A model generated the notes under the pieces. That model did no database searches and had not been told where the DNA came from. It was given only the letters and a program-made list of their open reading frames with translations. A DNA stretch of 64,000 bases from a virus (Duplodnaviria > Caudoviricetes), in the IMG/VR virus record IMGVR_UViG_3300020465_001196; one strand, written 5' to 3'. The position numbers were made by a program, and so were the translations under genes. This document shows, one piece after another, positions 4,608 to 56,021 of this stretch. Position 1 is the stretch's first letter, and every line of letters begins with the position of its first letter.

Positions 4608-5765
4608 TTATTTATCATACATATTCTTATCAAATATATAATCCTTTTCGTATACATTTTCTTCTGGTTTAGTAAAAAACTGTCTTTCTACTTCTCTAAT
4701 ACTTCCACCTTTTCTACATTTTAACGCACATTTTGGAACTACATCATCAGTAGAAAAATTAGACCCATTTGAATTAAATGTCCCTGGCAACACTTTATTA
4801 TAATATTCATGCCCTAATATTTCTTCCCAAGAATAATTTAAAATACTATTCCAACCAACTCCATATTTTTTATCTAATTTTCTAATTTTTTCAAATGATA
4901 AAAATTCATATTTGTTAGCATCTTTTCCTATAATTTGAGGATTTCCTTGACCATTATAAAGATCTCCAAAATAACAACACGGCCAAAGTCTTCCATCAAA
5001 TCCTAAATATAACTTTCTGTCATGATAATATAAACATTTTATATCTACTAATTTTTGTACCGCTTCATCATTAAGTTCAAATTCTGTTTCTTTAACTTGA
5101 CTGTGTTGATATTCTTTAGATGTTTGTTTTATTTCAATTTCTTTTTTAACTACTTTTCCATTTTCTTTAACTTTAGCAACTGACTTATAACCTTCATGTG
5201 TATTTCTACTATTTCTTCTAACATTAAAATCAAAATTTAAACGTTCAGCTTCTAGTCTTGCGGCTTCAATTTCATGCTCATTGTGATCAAATGCAATGTA
5301 TTCCCAATTTCCCCATCCGCCACCATCTGCGTATGCTTTCATGTTTCTTAAAATTATATCAAAATTTGTATTAACTCTATATAAATGATTTGTTTCTCTA
5401 TGACCGTCTACACTAAAAGTAACCTTAACTCCAAGCTGTGCTAACTTTTTCCAAAACTCTGGTTTTTGTACTCCACCATTTGTGTCGATTGATACTCTTA
5501 ATGGTTTTGTTGAATTGATATATTCTATTATAGGAATTAAATTTTTATGCATTATAGCATCACCAAACACACCACAAAATTCAATACTTTTTTTATGTAA
5601 GGCTTCTGCTGGAACTCTTGCAATAAAATCTTCTACTGTTAAGTCTGCTACTGTTAATTGTGGATTTGTTTCACCATTTAATGTTCTTGAACATCCAGAA
5701 CATCTGGCATTACAATTTGATGTGATTTCAATTTCAATTCTATCGTAAGTATTGTATATTGTCAT
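4608..5765 (-). CDS. Radical SAM protein with C-terminal Twitch/SPASM-like Cys motif (copy 1)
   Basis: CNARCSGC (CxxxCxxC), FCGVFGD, TNGG, FSVDG, and a distal C..WPCC..CALKC. Confidence 0.9.
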   Translation of the reverse strand: MTIYNTYDRIEIEITSNCNARCSGCSRTLNGETNPQLTVADLTVEDFIARVPAEALHKKSIEFCGVFGDAIMHKNLIPIIEYINSTKPLRVSIDTNGGVQKPEFWKKLAQLGVKVTFSVDGHRETNHLYRVNTNFDIILRNMKAYADGGGWGNWEYIAFDHNEHEIEAARLEAERLNFDFNVRRNSRNTHEGYKSVAKVKENGKVVKKEIEIKQTSKEYQHSQVKETEFELNDEAVQKLVDIKCLYYHDRKLYLGFDGRLWPCCYFGDLYNGQGNPQIIGKDANKYEFLSFEKIRKLDKKYGVGWNSILNYSWEEILGHEYYNKVLPGTFNSNGSNFSTDDVVPKCALKCRKGGSIREVERQFFTKPEENVYEKDYIFDKNMYDK

Positions 5766-30844: not shown

Positions 30845-32140
30845 TTATTTCTTTTGAGCCCAGAATTGTTTATCAACTGGAACATCTTTAGGAGTAGTTT
30901 GCTGTGCTCTCGAAAGAATATGTCCTTCTGGATCACTTCCAGCTTTTTCAATATCACTAGTATTAAAATTTGCACAACTATGAGTGCAAAAAGTTAAATT
31001 ATATCTATCTTTATTTGGCCTTAAAAGATAATCTAACTTTTTATATACTGATGACGACATAACCTCTTTAATTGTATTTGTTGCTGACACTCTAATTTTC
31101 TTTTCCCAATCTTTACCTAATTTTGATACCCAATCAGTTAAGTAATATTGTTGTTCATAATCTCTTTGTAAATAAAATTTTTTTTGAGATACAACTGATG
31201 TTCCAAATTGTTCTAAAAATTTATTCATATCACTACTCCAACAACATGGCCAAACAGTCCCATCGCTCATAACTTGTAGAGACTTAGATATTTGCCAAGG
31301 ACAAGAGTGTATTTTTCCTGTTGCTGTATTTTCTAGTTCACTAACATAATTTTTTAAACTAGATTCAGTACTCATTACTTTTTCATGAGTTTTGTCTATT
31401 TTAGTATTTTTATGTTTAGACACTTCTTTAGACTTTTCTTTATCTTTTAATGTTCCTTTTTTAGTTCGTGATGTAGATTCAGAAATAATTCTGTTTACAG
31501 TATCATTGCTACCACCATATGGTTGAGCTATTTCTAATCTATCAAATTTATAATCAAAAGCCATTTGCCTTGCTTCATCTTGTTGATCCTTATTATAATC
31601 AAAATCTAACATTCTCCAACCATGTTTATAAGGAGCAACTTCTTTTATCATTTTAAATCTTTTTTCAATTATACTCCATGATGCTCCACGTCTATATGTG
31701 TCGCACTTTTCTCTTAATCCATCTACGCCAACAACTAATTCTACTGTTGGAAGTTTTATTAATTTTAAAAATGTATCATCACTTCCACCACATAAATTTG
31801 TGTGTAAAGTTATCTTAACATTTGGTAATAGTTTTATTATTGTTGTTACTATATCATATAATTTTGGATGAGAAAAACAATCACCAATATCGCCATCAAA
31901 CTTAATACGTTTTAAATTTTTTAAATCTTTAAATATTGGTTCAATTAATTCTAATGGAATATGTTGTTGATGATCTAAAACTATTTGTTTTGGTAACAAT
32001 GTTTTAGCATCTGTCCTAGAACATGACACACATCGAAAGTTACAATAACTCGTTGGTTCAAATTGAATTAGTTTTACTTCTTCTGGGTCTATATAATATT
32101 CTGTCTCGGAAGTTAATGATATCCATTCTTTTGCTAACAT
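30845..32140 (-). CDS. Radical SAM protein with Twitch/SPASM-like Cys motif (copy 2)
   Basis: CNFRCVSC, GDIGD, HTN, VGVDG, and C..WPCC..CTHSC. Confidence 0.9.
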   Translation of the reverse strand: MLAKEWISLTSETEYYIDPEEVKLIQFEPTSYCNFRCVSCSRTDAKTLLPKQIVLDHQQHIPLELIEPIFKDLKNLKRIKFDGDIGDCFSHPKLYDIVTTIIKLLPNVKITLHTNLCGGSDDTFLKLIKLPTVELVVGVDGLREKCDTYRRGASWSIIEKRFKMIKEVAPYKHGWRMLDFDYNKDQQDEARQMAFDYKFDRLEIAQPYGGSNDTVNRIISESTSRTKKGTLKDKEKSKEVSKHKNTKIDKTHEKVMSTESSLKNYVSELENTATGKIHSCPWQISKSLQVMSDGTVWPCCWSSDMNKFLEQFGTSVVSQKKFYLQRDYEQQYYLTDWVSKLGKDWEKKIRVSATNTIKEVMSSSVYKKLDYLLRPNKDRYNLTFCTHSCANFNTSDIEKAGSDPEGHILSRAQQTTPKDVPVDKQFWAQKK

Positions 32141-45149: not shown

Positions 45150-46283
45150 ATGAAAATTGATCCGTATGAATTAAAGTCAGTTATGGTTGGTGTTACTGCA
45201 AGATGTAATGCTATGTGTCCAGGGTGTCCTAGAAATATCAATGGAGCATTGGTTAATCATGATATGATTGGTACTTCTGAACATTGGGATATGCCTCTTG
45301 GTTTGTTTGAAAAATTCTTTACTTCAGAACTTGTAAATTCATTAGACTGGATAGAAATGTGTGGTAGCTTTGGTGACCCGTGTATGCATCCTAAATTTTT
45401 AGAAATAATGCAATACTTAAAAAATACCCACAAAGGAAATAAAAAATTTTACGTAACAATATCAACAAATGGCTCAATGCAAACTGAAAATTTTTGGAAA
45501 ACTCTTGGTGAAATGCATTGTGATAAATTTGGTGTAGAAATTTTATTTTGTTTAGATGGTGACAATCAAGATAGTCATGTTAAGTACAGGCGTTTAACAA
45601 ACTTTGATACTATATTAGAAAATGCTAAAACATTTATAAATGCAGGTGGTTTAGCAGTTTGGCAGGCAATTGAATTTGACCATAATGAACATGAAATAGA
45701 AAATGCTCGTACAATGTCAAAAGAACTTGGATTTCATCGCTTCACAATACAATCAGGACAAGGTCGATTAACTGGATATTTAGAACATGAGTTAAAAGGT
45801 AAGCCTCATGATTACGGTTCAAAAACTAAAAAACAAAATGAAGAAAATATATCATATGATACTAAACCAAGTTATCAAAAAATGAAAAAAGAAATTGAAA
45901 AATACACTGATAAAAAAGTTGACAATATGCAATGGCAAGAAGTAAAACAAGTACTAACACATATTCCTGTTGAATGCCAATGGGAAAAAGAAAGTTCTAT
46001 ATTATTTGAATTTGATGGAAGTATTTGGAGATGCTGTTATCATGGAACATTAAAAAATAAAAATCAATGGAAGAAAAATGTTATAGGAAGATATGGAGAA
46101 AATTGGAACAATATTCAAAATCACAATTTAAAAGATATTTTAGAACATGAATTTTTCACAACTTATTTAGACGAATCTTTTACAAACCCAGATGGCCCTT
46201 TTAAAAGGTTAACCTCTTGTACAGAAGCTTGTGGAGTTCATTTGAACTTCTTGCAGAAACATCTACCTAAAAAACATAACTAA
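45150..46283 (+). CDS. Radical SAM protein with Twitch/SPASM-like Cys motif (copy 3)
   Basis: CNAMCPGC, CGSFGDP, STNGS, FCLDG, and C..WRCC..CTEAC. Confidence 0.9.
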   Translation: MKIDPYELKSVMVGVTARCNAMCPGCPRNINGALVNHDMIGTSEHWDMPLGLFEKFFTSELVNSLDWIEMCGSFGDPCMHPKFLEIMQYLKNTHKGNKKFYVTISTNGSMQTENFWKTLGEMHCDKFGVEILFCLDGDNQDSHVKYRRLTNFDTILENAKTFINAGGLAVWQAIEFDHNEHEIENARTMSKELGFHRFTIQSGQGRLTGYLEHELKGKPHDYGSKTKKQNEENISYDTKPSYQKMKKEIEKYTDKKVDNMQWQEVKQVLTHIPVECQWEKESSILFEFDGSIWRCCYHGTLKNKNQWKKNVIGRYGENWNNIQNHNLKDILEHEFFTTYLDESFTNPDGPFKRLTSCTEACGVHLNFLQKHLPKKHN

Positions 46284-49515: not shown

Positions 49516-50694
49516 TTACACAAATGCCGCGTTAGCAATCGCAATATTTGATAGGTAGTCTGCTGAATTACCAAGTGATGACGCTGTGTTTGTTAACTCA
49601 ACGTAACCGTATCTTGTCATGAAGCTTACTACTGGCTCAAATGTTGACGGATCAACAATAACGCCTGAAGACATAAGTGGGATGTATGGGCAATAGAAAG
49701 CCGCCGCATCTACTTCACCTGCACCTTTGTAACCAATTAAAACTGGTGATGAAGCTGAAAGATATGAGTTAACATATACTCTCATCGCACCGTTTAATGT
49801 ACCTACAAATTTAGTGTTAGTTGGAGCTTCAAACGTACCTTCAGTTGTTCTTGCGAACGCTGAAGTTGTAGCTGATTGTAAAATTGTCAAAGCTTCTGGA
49901 GAAACAACAGCCCAGTTAGCCGCGCCTCTTCTAGTTCTTTGAGCAATTAAGTTTGCTTGTTGGTTGATTAATACAGCCAACACCGCGTGTCTGTCACCTA
50001 CATAGTGAGGTGTACCAGTGAATGAACCGTTCATATCGAACGTTGCACCCGCTGTACCAGATAAAGATGTTAAAGAAGCTAAAACTTCTTGGTCGATCTC
50101 AGCCGTAATTTCTTGTGCTAATGCCGCCATTACTTCTGCTTCTACATCTAAACCATGCATTGCTGATGCGTCTTGTGCCGCTTCAAATGTCCAACGTGCA
50201 GATAGCTTTCTTGTTTTAGCTTCTACAGTTTGTTTTAAGATTTGAATTGACATTTTGTTACCAGCTTCACCCTCTAAAGATGAAGTTGATGCACCCGCAA
50301 CTGGTGACGCCGTTGACGCACCTGGGTTTGAAGAGTATGATCTTGCGATTTCAAAAGGTGAAAGTGCTTCAGAACCTGCTGTTACACCGTCTTTTGAATC
50401 TGCGTATCTAACTCTCATAGTGTGAATTTGACCTACTGGACCAGTCATTGGTTGTACACCAACGATTTCGTTAGCGATTACAGTTGGCATCACACGTCTA
50501 ATTATTGGAAGAATTACTTTGTTTAAAGCCGCAACGTTACCGGCACCTGTAGCACCAGTTGTAGCCGCCTCAGCCAAGTAAGTCTTAGTATTCTCAAGAA
50601 CAGTCTCCATTGATTTTGCTCTTTGGCCTGATAGGCCTTCCATCAATGCAGTTTTAGTATCTGTCCATTTTTCTGTGATTACTTTATCAGTCAT
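49516..50694 (-). CDS. gp23: Major capsid protein (gp23-like)
   Basis: IVGVQPMTGP.G, VEAKTRKL.A.WT.E.AQD...HGLD.E.E, EI..EI.QE, and YCPYIPL. Confidence 0.97.
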   Translation of the reverse strand: MTDKVITEKWTDTKTALMEGLSGQRAKSMETVLENTKTYLAEAATTGATGAGNVAALNKVILPIIRRVMPTVIANEIVGVQPMTGPVGQIHTMRVRYADSKDGVTAGSEALSPFEIARSYSSNPGASTASPVAGASTSSLEGEAGNKMSIQILKQTVEAKTRKLSARWTFEAAQDASAMHGLDVEAEVMAALAQEITAEIDQEVLASLTSLSGTAGATFDMNGSFTGTPHYVGDRHAVLAVLINQQANLIAQRTRRGAANWAVVSPEALTILQSATTSAFARTTEGTFEAPTNTKFVGTLNGAMRVYVNSYLSASSPVLIGYKGAGEVDAAAFYCPYIPLMSSGVIVDPSTFEPVVSFMTRYGYVELTNTASSLGNSADYLSNIAIANAAFV

Positions 50695-51810: not shown

Positions 51811-52440
51811 CTATAACTTCAGCTCTTTTATTAATTTCGTCATCTCTTCTTTAAGATAACGTTCAGCCCTACGATCATAAACTGAATCAGCACCAAGACC
51901 ATAAATTCGTCTGCCGCCTCTCATGTTCATAAGACCTTCGTATATTGCTTTCGGATAAGCATCCGGAGCCGATGGCTGAGCTACAATATCTACAGTAACG
52001 ATTTCAAAATCAGCAACTTGTCCTGATTCGTTTACGTTTCCTGTACCTCTTGAGCTTACACCTAATTTCGCTCCACTTTCCAAAAGTGTTTTAACAATGT
52101 TCCCCATTGGGGTTGGTAAAATTTTAAGTTTACCAATTCCATTCGGACCGTCCATCCACATACTTTCAATCATATGTGATACACGATCCAAATTTACTGT
52201 TAATTCTTCAGGATGATCGGCTTCACCAAGAACTGACAAACCACCTTTAAGTCTTTCATCAATTGAGTTTACTGCCTTTTGAATTTCATCTAAAGGATAA
52301 ACTCTTTGATTTTGGTTTTTCACTCCGCCTTGGATAAAAACACCTTTCATGTATAAGTTTTTCTTGTCACCTTCGCCTTCATTAATAATTTGAATGCCGG
52401 CTTGGTCAAAAGTTAAACTTTCTAGTAACGGTTTTACCAT
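51811..52440 (-). CDS. gp21: Prohead protease (gp21-like)
   Basis: G.FIQ..VKN.N.RVYP, GE.DHP, VSH, and GVSSRG.G. Confidence 0.95.
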   Translation of the reverse strand: MVKPLLESLTFDQAGIQIINEGEGDKKNLYMKGVFIQGGVKNQNQRVYPLDEIQKAVNSIDERLKGGLSVLGEADHPEELTVNLDRVSHMIESMWMDGPNGIGKLKILPTPMGNIVKTLLESGAKLGVSSRGTGNVNESGQVADFEIVTVDIVAQPSAPDAYPKAIYEGLMNMRGGRRIYGLGADSVYDRRAERYLKEEMTKLIKELKL

Positions 52441-53407: not shown

Positions 53408-53563
53408 ATCATATCTCCTAAATCTTATTCACGTGAATATATTTAGACACGTATTTCGTGTCGACTATAACTTATATTTAACATAATTATAGGAAAATAT
53501 AGAAAAAGGAGCCTATTTTGAGCCGTTTTTGAGTCCGTTTTTAATTAAAACGCACTTTTTGGC

Positions 53564-53764
53564 TTATTGTACTGGCTGTGCGTACATTGTGGCTACAAAT
53601 TCTTTGTTTTTTTCAATGTCAGCTTTACGCATTTCACGTACTTTACGCAATTTGTTTAAATGCTGTAAAGTTAATTTAGTTTTACGACTATCAGTAATTT
53701 CTGCTTGATGAAACTGATCATCTTCTGGAAAATAGGTTTCTTTAATAATTTCTTTGTAACGCAT
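53564..53764 (-). CDS. Small hypothetical protein
   Basis: Starts MRYKEIIKE. TAAATA-N5-ATG. Confidence 0.7.
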   Translation of the reverse strand: MRYKEIIKETYFPEDDQFHQAEITDSRKTKLTLQHLNKLRKVREMRKADIEKNKEFVATMYAQPVQ

Positions 53765-53766
53765 AA

Positions 53767-53877
53767 TAATATTTACCTTCTCTTACTACAGTCATCACAT
53801 CTGCAATTTTCACAGTTGCAATTTTCACATTTACATTTACAATTTTTGCAAGCCATATTAATATTTACCTTCTCTTA
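53767..53877. repeat. Perfect 19-bp direct repeats flanking the Cys-rich mini-gene
   Basis: TAATATTTACCTTCTCTTA at 53767-53785 and 53859-53877. Confidence 0.9.
53773..53856 (-). CDS. 27-aa cysteine-rich peptide (metallothionein-like or RiPP-precursor-like), not in the ORF track
   Basis: Manual translation MACKNCKCKCENCNCENCRCDDCSKRR (9 Cys). TAAATA-N5-ATG. Confidence 0.7.
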   Translation of the reverse strand: MACKNCKCKCENCNCENCRCDDCSKRR

Positions 53878-54251
53878 AGACTTTTTCTTGCTCTACCACG
53901 TAATTTCTTTAATGACGTATTCATTTTTTTAGTACGTATAGAAGCTGGACTATACTTTTTAGTATATGACGATTTAGCACCTTGTATACTACCTTTAGCT
54001 CTACGTGTACCTTTCATTCTGTTACTTTGCTGTACATTTAATGGTGCATTACACGTTTCTGGTTTAGCAACAATACGTCCTTTACGTGGGCCTGATGGAC
54101 AACGAAACTTTCTAGTTAGTTTTCCTTTTTTAGATCCTGATCCAAATTTACCTGGTGATCTTCCAAATATCTGAAATGCTCCAGTTGGCTTTGCTTCACT
54201 AACTGATTCAAAACAATATAGTTCTGTATTGCTAATTTCGTAAATCTTCAT
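53865..54251 (-). CDS. Small basic protein, paralog of 5777-6067
   Basis: Starts MKIYEI, has RC..G.RKGRIV..P..C.APL, and a K/R-rich tail. Confidence 0.7.
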   Translation of the reverse strand: MKIYEISNTELYCFESVSEAKPTGAFQIFGRSPGKFGSGSKKGKLTRKFRCPSGPRKGRIVAKPETCNAPLNVQQSNRMKGTRRAKGSIQGAKSSYTKKYSPASIRTKKMNTSLKKLRGRARKSLKRR

Positions 54252-54299: not shown

Positions 54300-56021
54300 T
54301 TATGCTTGATCTGTTGGATTTGGTTCACCGCCACCTATTGGTGGAGTTTCTCCAGTTGCCTCTGGTGCATCTACGTCTGCATCTGCGGCTGGTTCTGTCA
54401 TTGGCATTGGTGCCGCACCCACATCACTTAAACCACCTAAGCCACCACCCATATCATCACCTTGTGCTGTTGGTCCTGCCGTTTGAGCATTTTCTTCTGC
54501 CCATAGTTTTTCGTTTTGATAAATTTCTGATTCATCAAGACCAAGATAACGTTTCATTGCAAAACGTTTAGACATAAATGGAATACCTTGTAATTGTGTA
54601 AAGATACTTGTTTGTTGATTATCAATTTCAATCTGTCTGTATTTGCCAAAGTTTTGTGGCTCATTAAATTGTAACTCAAACGATCCTGAATCAATTTCAA
54701 TACCTCTATGTTTTAAGAACATTTTAAATTCTCTATCAATAGTTGGTTGTATCATTGATTGTAAACGTTTGATATATTTTGTAAATCTAAATTCTTGTAT
54801 ATATGCTGTACCTACTCTACCATCAGTAAATGCTGAACCTGGATCTTCTGGTGTTGATGGCAAATAACTTGATGGAATTCTTAAACCTTTCATCAATTTA
54901 TTATTAAAGTATTTTAAATCATCAATTTCACCTAAGTTTTGACCACCTGGTAATGTTTCAACTTTTGATCCTCTACCTTCAGCCGTTTGTGCAAAGAAAT
55001 AATCTTCAATCATTGATAATGGATTATAAGCGGCATCCATTACATTTGCACCGCCACCTGTTTTATTTGGAATACGTTTTTGGTGTATTTCGTTTTTAAC
55101 TCTTTCAATAAATGCCATTGCTTTATTTGTTGGCATATTACCTACGTCAATATAAAATACTCTACGTTCAGGTGCTCTTTGTACTCTGTAAATAATAATT
55201 GCGTCTTCTAATAATTCTTTTTGTTTGTATACTTTAAATATACTTTCTAATACTGATGTACCAAAAGGCCAAAATCTATCCATGCCTTCTGATAATGAAA
55301 TGTGTGCAATATGCGAAGCATCAACTGGTGTTGTTTTTACTTCTTGTGTAAACCTACCACCTGTTGCTGTACTAATTGCTGTTGTTACTCCTTGGTATTT
55401 TGCATCTGTGGCAAAAGGCATACTACCACCTTGGAAAGCAATTGGTGCCGACATTTTATATTGACTCATTGTTGTTAAGTTTAAATTTTGTAAATTTAAA
55501 TCTAAATCTCTAATAAAGTATGCTTCTGGTTTTTTACCTTTACCTTCGTTAACAATAATTTTATCAATTTTACTTTGATCAACCCAAAGTAACTTATATG
55601 TTTCTGGATCTCTTACAAATACTTGATCTCCATACTTAATAGTATTTCTAAATAATTTAAAACATCTTTTGTCCCAATCATTTACATTTGACCATTGTTT
55701 AATTGCTTGGTTTAAAATTTCTGTTTCTGTATCTGTTGGTTTATCTTTATAAAATATTTTAAATGGAGCACCTGTTTTTGGATCTACTTGAGTAGCAAAT
55801 TCTGAAATAGTATCTAATGAAGCATTAATTTCAGTATCTAAATCCATTTGATCATATTGATAATAACGTTCAATACGATTTGGCTGTCCTGCATATACTT
55901 CTGGTAACCATGTGCTATATTTTGAATTCGTAGAACTTCCGCCTGGTGTTCCAGCATTACCAATTACTGACTGTTGCCCTAATTTTGTGCTATATTCTGT
56001 AAAGTGTTTTTTCCAACTCAT
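54300..56021 (-). CDS. gp20: Portal protein (gp20-like)
   Basis: IYRVQRAPERRVFYIDVGNMP, EDYFF, GSKVETLPGGQNLGEIDDLKYF, and E.RF.KY..RLQ. Confidence 0.97.
   Translation of the reverse strand: MSWKKHFTEYSTKLGQQSVIGNAGTPGGSSTNSKYSTWLPEVYAGQPNRIERYYQYDQMDLDTEINASLDTISEFATQVDPKTGAPFKIFYKDKPTDTETEILNQAIKQWSNVNDWDKRCFKLFRNTIKYGDQVFVRDPETYKLLWVDQSKIDKIIVNEGKGKKPEAYFIRDLDLNLQNLNLTTMSQYKMSAPIAFQGGSMPFATDAKYQGVTTAISTATGGRFTQEVKTTPVDASHIAHISLSEGMDRFWPFGTSVLESIFKVYKQKELLEDAIIIYRVQRAPERRVFYIDVGNMPTNKAMAFIERVKNEIHQKRIPNKTGGGANVMDAAYNPLSMIEDYFFAQTAEGRGSKVETLPGGQNLGEIDDLKYFNNKLMKGLRIPSSYLPSTPEDPGSAFTDGRVGTAYIQEFRFTKYIKRLQSMIQPTIDREFKMFLKHRGIEIDSGSFELQFNEPQNFGKYRQIEIDNQQTSIFTQLQGIPFMSKRFAMKRYLGLDESEIYQNEKLWAEENAQTAGPTAQGDDMGGGLGGLSDVGAAPMPMTEPAADADVDAPEATGETPPIGGGEPNPTDQA

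Follow-up and report, generated by a model that had tools for sequence, protein, structure and literature searches.

Metallothionein domains with nine cysteines bind three metal ions if these are divalent and about six if they are Cu(I), and M(II)3Cys9 clusters are found in the beta domain of the vertebrate protein and in both domains of its crustacean counterpart. The Neurospora crassa-type Cu(I) metallothionein of fungi, a eukaryotic protein, has about 25 residues and 7 cysteines, and SmtA has about 56 residues, histidine ligands and a zinc-finger-like fold. Cysteine-rich cores are also typical substrates of radical SAM enzymes, and the precursors of the SCIFF/ranthipeptide type possess a leader and an adjacent maturase. 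PeSLs consist of an early promoter and a stem-loop; they were reportedly described by Arbiol, Comeau and Krisch in 2010 as mobile promoter-bearing cassettes of T4-type phages. Metallothioneins have been named among candidate viral auxiliary genes in a 2026 preprint, by annotation only (PMC13317609), and our full-text literature searches returned no description of a metallothionein-like peptide in a phage. A paper on a thioredoxin-metallothionein was set aside as not relevant to the peptide considered here, its domain being of the SmtA type (PMC13578184). Marine cyanobacteria, which are the hosts of the T4-like phages found below to carry a diverged copy of our gene, have bmtA (PMC9337993).

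Here we show that a gene for a nine-cysteine peptide, located in a 64,000-nucleotide stretch of viral DNA (the window), is a mobile cassette that is absent from the closest relatives of the phage carrying it and shared with T4-like cyanophages. The window has a G+C content of 32.5% and recurs across marine metagenomes of many studies. Its portal protein is 55% identical to the portals of PA5oct-type and Atu_ph07-type jumbo phages, and a 92%-identical portal is encoded on a complete viral genome of 328 kb with terminal repeats (G001, the genome of L001), from which psbA is absent. Judged by the portal identity, the 328-kb relative and the recurrence in marine metagenomes, the window is part of a marine jumbo phage.

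The original prediction had placed the peptide in a head gene cluster, and PHROG profiles identify a T4-type head module in which the order is portal, 128-aa gene, nine-cysteine ORF, 66-aa gene, 308-aa gene, protease, 367-aa gene and major head protein, with all neighbours of the ORF on the same strand:

49516-50694, minus strand: major head protein gene, by PHROG profile
51811-52440, minus strand: head maturation protease gene, by PHROG profile
53564..53764, minus strand: conserved head-module gene encoding 66 aa (phrog_13986)
53773..53856, minus strand: nine-cysteine ORF of 27 codons, by translation, with ATG at 53856 and TAA at 53775-53773
53865..54251, minus strand: gene for a very basic protein of 128 aa, belonging to no PHROG or Pfam family
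54300..56021, minus strand: portal protein gene, the anchor of the head module (phrog_213 at 1.4e-111)

The window is tightly packed, and the ORF together with two 8-nt spacers makes up the whole 100-nt gap between the 128-aa and 66-aa genes. The 128-aa protein is rich in Lys, Arg and Gly and may be an internal head or DNA-binding protein. Its gene is confined to the closest relatives (L001, L002 and L203-L211), where it occurs with or without the nine-cysteine ORF behind it.

Translation of 53773..53856 on the minus strand yields MACKNCKCKCENCNCENCRCDDCSKRR, a peptide of 27 aa and 3.16 kDa in which 9 of the 27 residues (33%) are Cys, at positions 3, 6, 8, 10, 13, 15, 18, 20 and 23. Successive cysteines are spaced by 2 or 3 only, and Phe, Trp, Tyr and His do not occur in the window peptide, the diverged cyanophage form having one Tyr. 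The plus-strand translation of the same interval is meaningless. The original prediction had thus read the coordinates, the ATG-to-TAA frame and the 27-residue, nine-cysteine sequence exactly, the strand being minus, and the internal repeat it reported is real: the core of the peptide corresponds to four 15-nt units (C-x-x-C-x), the second and third of which are identical at 13 of 15 positions, which suggests growth by tandem duplication.

In 80 related loci of these AT-rich genomes, Cys-rich mini-ORFs fell on the antisense strand 131 times and on the sense strand 3 times; the nine-cysteine ORF is on the sense strand, intergenic and conserved in other contigs. Since such ORFs are rare on the sense strand, and since this one fills its slot exactly and recurs in other contigs, a chance origin is unlikely. 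Nor does the region point to an RNA element, as its predicted fold is no better than that of shuffled sequence (z +0.73). Contigs from marine RNA libraries, which may contain DNA, cover the ORF, one of them bridging it and the 128-aa gene, and one further contig from such libraries, with the same caveat, carries the cyanophage form. Because the libraries can hold DNA, these contigs lend weak support to transcription of the ORF, and their depths and uncovered parts give no basis for ranking expression or for showing its absence.

Among contigs carrying the 128-aa gene, the nine-cysteine ORF is present in the window, in L081 and L082 (the L211 and L204 contigs, respectively) and in the metagenome contig L245, and absent from L001, L002, L203 and L205-L209. 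L245 was the one further copy found in a single metagenome scan, the other matches being unrelated. A C-terminal pattern search found no new copy, and a pattern that fixed the Cys skeleton alone was swamped by poly-TGT/TGC runs. In 50,697 records of cultured phages, neither a blastn search with the 1-kb region nor a tblastn search with the peptide gave a match, the low-complexity filter in such searches being capable of hiding the peptide.

Alignment with the empty-site relatives resolves the ORF as a clean insertion of 92 nt; L001 and L002 have just 8 nt, with the same junction, between the 128-aa gene and the 66-aa gene behind it. Two copies of a repeat bound the insertion, and a patch of lowered identity surrounds it when the window is compared with L203:

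53854..53876, minus strand: upstream junction repeat copy of 23 nt, AAGAGAAGGTAAATATTAATATG, by repeat match and empty-site alignment, containing the end of the 128-aa gene (its last codons and TAA), the TAAATA box, N5 and the start codon (ATG) of the nine-cysteine ORF
53762..53784, minus strand: downstream junction repeat copy, 22/23 identical, on the same basis, containing the end of the nine-cysteine ORF (its KRR codons and TAA), the TAAATA box, N5 and the start codon (ATG) of the 66-aa gene
53453..53950, no strand assigned: recombination patch relative to L203, by sliding identity, with 87-91% identity and a 92-nt indel

The window contains just two copies of the 17-nt word AGAGAAGGTAAATATTA, spaced by 92 nt, where 0.02 such matches would be expected by chance. 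Given a clean insertion at the same junction, the ATG of the nine-cysteine ORF occupies the position that the start codon of the 66-aa gene holds in the empty site, and the sequence upstream of it is identical to that preceding the 66-aa gene in empty-site genomes. Identity between L203 and the window is at least 99% over 1.8 kb to one side of the patch and over 1.2 kb to the other. The patch itself, of about 0.5 kb, takes in the end of the 128-aa gene, the nine-cysteine ORF, the 66-aa gene and its trailing spacer; the nine-cysteine gene therefore segregates by recombination within a population of near-identical phages. A separate feature of this patch is a 12-nt unit, TTTTGAGTCCGT, repeated 2.3 times at 53516-53542 of the window, in the 156-nt spacer behind the 66-aa gene.

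In most relatives the portal gene is directly followed by the 66-aa gene, the order that we regard as ancestral. The portal/66-aa junction is also an insertion hot spot more generally, at which single genes differ between lineages. Its occupants in L003, L004/L005, L013/L019/L033, L028, L054 and L058 include, by eye, cold-shock-like, 223-aa and 187-aa proteins, and also, among these relatives, a 326-aa PLP-enzyme-like protein.

The TAAATA-N5-ATG arrangement that the original prediction had pointed out is common to the nine-cysteine ORF and the next gene. Of 69 gene starts in the window, 8 have a TAAATA that begins exactly 11 nt upstream of the ATG (25839, 28071, 28349, 32140, 38333, 44716, 53764 and 53856), these two genes included, which makes the junction a recurrent expression signal of the window phage. 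We take it to resemble the late promoters of T4-type phages, and TAAATA at -11 may mark promoters of a late-type class whose mRNAs have a very short leader or none. At other genes of the window, (T)ATAAATA lies 25-30 nt upstream and a Shine-Dalgarno-like site comes after it. The 92-nt cassette brings its own copy of the stop/TAAATA-N5-ATG junction and so uses the start signals that drive the 66-aa gene in insert-free relatives; the peptide would probably be translated late in infection.

A diverged form of the peptide, MACKNCKCECENCNCDYCRCDDCGETRD, comprises 28 aa with nine Cys at the same positions. It was reached via the loose end of an RNA-library contig, which led to L287 and then to L289, L293 and L295. 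Contigs with this form hold a family B DNA polymerase, a DsbA-type regulator, a peroxiredoxin and a GMP-reductase-like gene, and the gene downstream of the copy matches Synechococcus and Prochlorococcus myophages; by gene content, they are fragments of T4-like cyanophages. The copy is flanked by an 85-aa gene upstream, whose third-position changes mark it as a real gene on the same strand, and a 303-aa gene downstream, both unrelated to the flanking genes of the window. Apart from the junction TAAATATTAAyATG, preceded by AAGAGA, the jumbo-phage and cyanophage contexts have no homology, and this junction is likely to be the site of exchange. Transfer between the two lineages accompanies presence and absence at one site and repeated boundaries, and the occurrence in unrelated genomes completes the picture of a mobile cassette. 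A larger, two-gene unit of exchange was considered and rejected, the 128-aa and 85-aa genes that precede the two forms being not detectably related. Separately, a 521-nt contig, L311, has a cyanophage-type copy with N12I and C18W behind the same TAAATATTAAT junction. What precedes this copy looks, by eye, like the last part of a class II ribonucleotide reductase gene and the first part of a pdxA-like gene; a third context, a decaying copy and a chimeric assembly are all possible.

The cyanophage slot was surveyed in 80 loci holding the 85-aa gene, the stop codon of which is embedded in the same (A)TAAATA junction. The nine-cysteine gene stands behind it in 4 of the 80 loci, and proteins of 52-57 aa with CxxC motifs in 9. 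In L316 and L317, where the 85-aa gene shares 91% identity with its L287 counterpart, a different peptide has exactly the same 5' and 3' junctions, and the remaining loci are empty (for example, L319):

L316:1468-1575: gene for a 35-aa peptide with 12 Cys and two His, in the same slot as the cyanophage nine-cysteine gene

That a different Cys-rich peptide can hold this slot argues that selection keeps a trait and not a particular sequence. It also bears on a view of the peptide as a zinc-knuckle-like mini-protein that binds a partner (in head assembly, as a packaged virion component, or as a host target) and is not a metal buffer. Such a role would suit the place of the window gene in the prohead cluster, with a basic protein encoded on one side and a conserved head gene on the other. 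It would also suit the setting of the cyanophage copy: the gene that comes after this copy has relatives with a virion-protein annotation in one cultured phage, and the 52-57-aa CxxC proteins occur in the same slot. We nevertheless regard partner binding as unlikely, given that the neighbours differ entirely between the two lineages, that near-identical phages do without the gene, that the charge and all non-Cys residues vary freely, and that an unrelated-looking 12-Cys peptide can take its place.

Comparison of the window with L287 over codons 2-24 gives 10 nucleotide differences, 6 synonymous and 4 non-synonymous, at about 9 synonymous and 63 non-synonymous sites (pN/pS 0.10; Fisher p 1e-4 for the synonymous excess). 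When the same number and kind of changes were placed at random in 200,000 trials, 2.3% kept all nine Cys and an open frame. The cyanophage copies differ from one another by 3 synonymous and 0 non-synonymous changes and in the stop codon, which changes from TAA to TAG. The variants in L081, L082 and public runs affect residues 9, 16, 21 and 24 or the third positions of the codons for Cys 3 and Cys 13, with no Cys altered. The window and L082 share 95% identity over the ORF, against 86-88% over the flanking genes. On the strength of the synonymous excess and the retention of all nine Cys, the ORF is, as read from these comparisons, a protein-coding gene under purifying selection, a signal that comes from few sites; conservation that preserves the frame, to which the original coding claim was tied, is there. 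Net charge changes from +3 in the window form to -3 in the cyanophage form while the Cys positions stay identical, so that what is conserved is the thiol skeleton and not the charge.

These figures weigh on the idea that the cassette is a passenger, spreading by recombination at the junctions and encoding a peptide that brings little or no benefit or is not translated at all. Patchy distribution among near-identical genomes is what such an element would show; direct repeats make its gain and loss easy, and a core of short tandem units is expected of a young gene. The excess of synonymous change and the nine Cys retained across two lineages speak against a passenger, however, as do an ORF more conserved than the genes flanking it and the start signals of an essential neighbour, and we consider this account quite improbable.

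The original prediction had also offered the peptide as a possible substrate of radical SAM enzymes, of which the window encodes three:

4608-5765: radical SAM gene
30845-32140: radical SAM gene with a SPASM domain
45150-46283: radical SAM gene

One of these would, on that proposal, turn the peptide into a product of the ranthipeptide/sactipeptide type, and the presence of three such genes, the second with a SPASM domain, is in its favour. The nearest of them is 7.5 kb from the ORF, however, and the SPASM gene 21.6 kb, so that the candidate maturases lie 7.5-48 kb away. The peptide has no leader, as the Cys run begins at residue 3, and a stop codon lies 8 nt upstream of the ATG; the original remark that no leader is obvious was accurate. 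Co-occurrence fails as well: G001 encodes six or more radical SAM paralogues, whose identity to the three in the window is only 23-40%, and has no CKCKC motif and no such peptide, the near-identical L203 is without the peptide, and five other contigs of 20-72 kb with related Cys genes have no radical SAM gene. With neither leader, nor adjacent maturase, nor co-occurrence, the substrate proposal does not hold up, and we give it very little credence. Radical SAM genes form a large, fast-evolving family in this jumbo phage clade. In an unrelated context, L231 holds at about 3260 (plus strand) a 77-codon frame whose N-terminal half is leader-like and whose Cys-rich C-terminal core ends in NCKCKCNNCNC; this frame resembles a precursor of the RiPP type.

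The reading that we prefer, and on which our confidence is evenly poised, is that of a mobile metallothionein-like micro-protein that would form a metal-thiolate cluster. The peptide shows the sequence traits of metallothioneins: a mass below 10 kDa, a high Cys content in CxC and CxxC motifs, and few or no aromatic residues or His. The metallothionein proposal made originally therefore stands as regards size, 33% Cys, spacing, the lack of aromatics and His and a Cys skeleton under selection, and finds no counterpart among catalogued families. Pfam and NCBIfam gave zero matches for the nine-cysteine peptides, even at E 10, and no PDB chain matches the peptide or profile A2, built from seven members. 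Against 1.84 billion protein representatives, the same profile found one match, a miscalled 70-aa ORF on L311 that includes the copy of the gene there; the peptide is missing from protein databases because it falls below the length cut-off of gene finders. No metal-homeostasis genes were found near the Cys gene in the jumbo-phage or the cyanophage context. The replacement of a Cys by Trp in the L311 copy (C18W) tells against a metal cluster, and nine thiols could equally serve another role. If the metallothionein-like reading is right, the nine thiolates would fold around metal ions in the host cytoplasm into a cluster of metallothionein type, with a predicted load, by analogy with nine-Cys metallothionein domains, of about three ions of Zn/Cd(II) or of four to six Cu(I), and late in infection the peptide would serve as a small buffer for metal (or for thiol/redox balance).

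Motif relatives occur on other viral contigs, as nine-Cys peptides of 23 aa (L290, L294) and peptides of 16-20 aa (L292), and look-alikes occur in some bacterial genomes (L297, L299, L300) and as C-terminal tails of ferredoxins in two MAGs. Their homology is a lead and not a result, because the pattern used for retrieval forces nine residues. In the small sample of bacterial look-alikes (L297, L299 and L300), no metal-sensor or efflux genes were found beside them. The ferredoxins are single-cluster 4Fe-4S proteins (Fer4_13) at L298:3748-4017 and L305:2623-2898, both on the minus strand, in MAGs assigned to Bacilli and Tenericutes. Their Cys-rich tail is identical to the cyanophage form at 15 of 20 positions and is a possible cellular relative or source; a search with this tail among shorter proteins gave no match.

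What appears to be new here is a metallothionein-like peptide in the form of a phage-borne cassette. The locus provides a clean natural example of the exchange of a single-gene cassette between a jumbo phage and T4-like cyanophages via a stop/promoter/start junction. Should the peptide bind metal, it would be a phage-encoded metallothionein of about half the bacterial size in abundant marine phages. More tentatively, and with some doubt on our part, unrelated ocean phages may exchange tiny late-promoter cassettes, overlooked by gene callers, of alternative Cys-cluster peptides at fixed hot spots, as metallothioneins that would re-tune the economy of trace metals (Zn/Cu/Cd) or of thiols in the infected cell. 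If true, these cassettes would be auxiliary genes of a new class and would matter for metal cycling in the sea.

Set beside the systems described at the outset, the cassette resembles PeSLs in its mobility: both are single small genes bounded by repeated regulatory junctions and shuffled by recombination there, whereas the junction here is of the late type, stop/TAAATA-N5-ATG, and has no stem-loop. SCIFF/ranthipeptide precursors are likewise short Cys-rich peptides in genomes with radical SAM-SPASM enzymes, but the phage peptide has neither their leader nor their adjacent maturase. With SmtA/BmtA (PF02069) it would share the character of a cytoplasmic Cys-rich metal buffer of the prokaryote world, at about half the size and with no Pfam match even at E 10. 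The Neurospora crassa-type metallothionein is, like the candidate described here, a single small cluster-forming peptide that constitutes a whole metallothionein of comparable size; it has 7 rather than nine Cys in another spacing, and homology was not detected. The nine-Cys metallothionein domains are alike in having nine Cys in about 30 residues, in CxC and CxxC motifs, with Lys, Asn and Glu between them and no aromatics or His, whereas the phage peptide, which has no detectable sequence relationship to them, is a free-standing unit of 27 aa.
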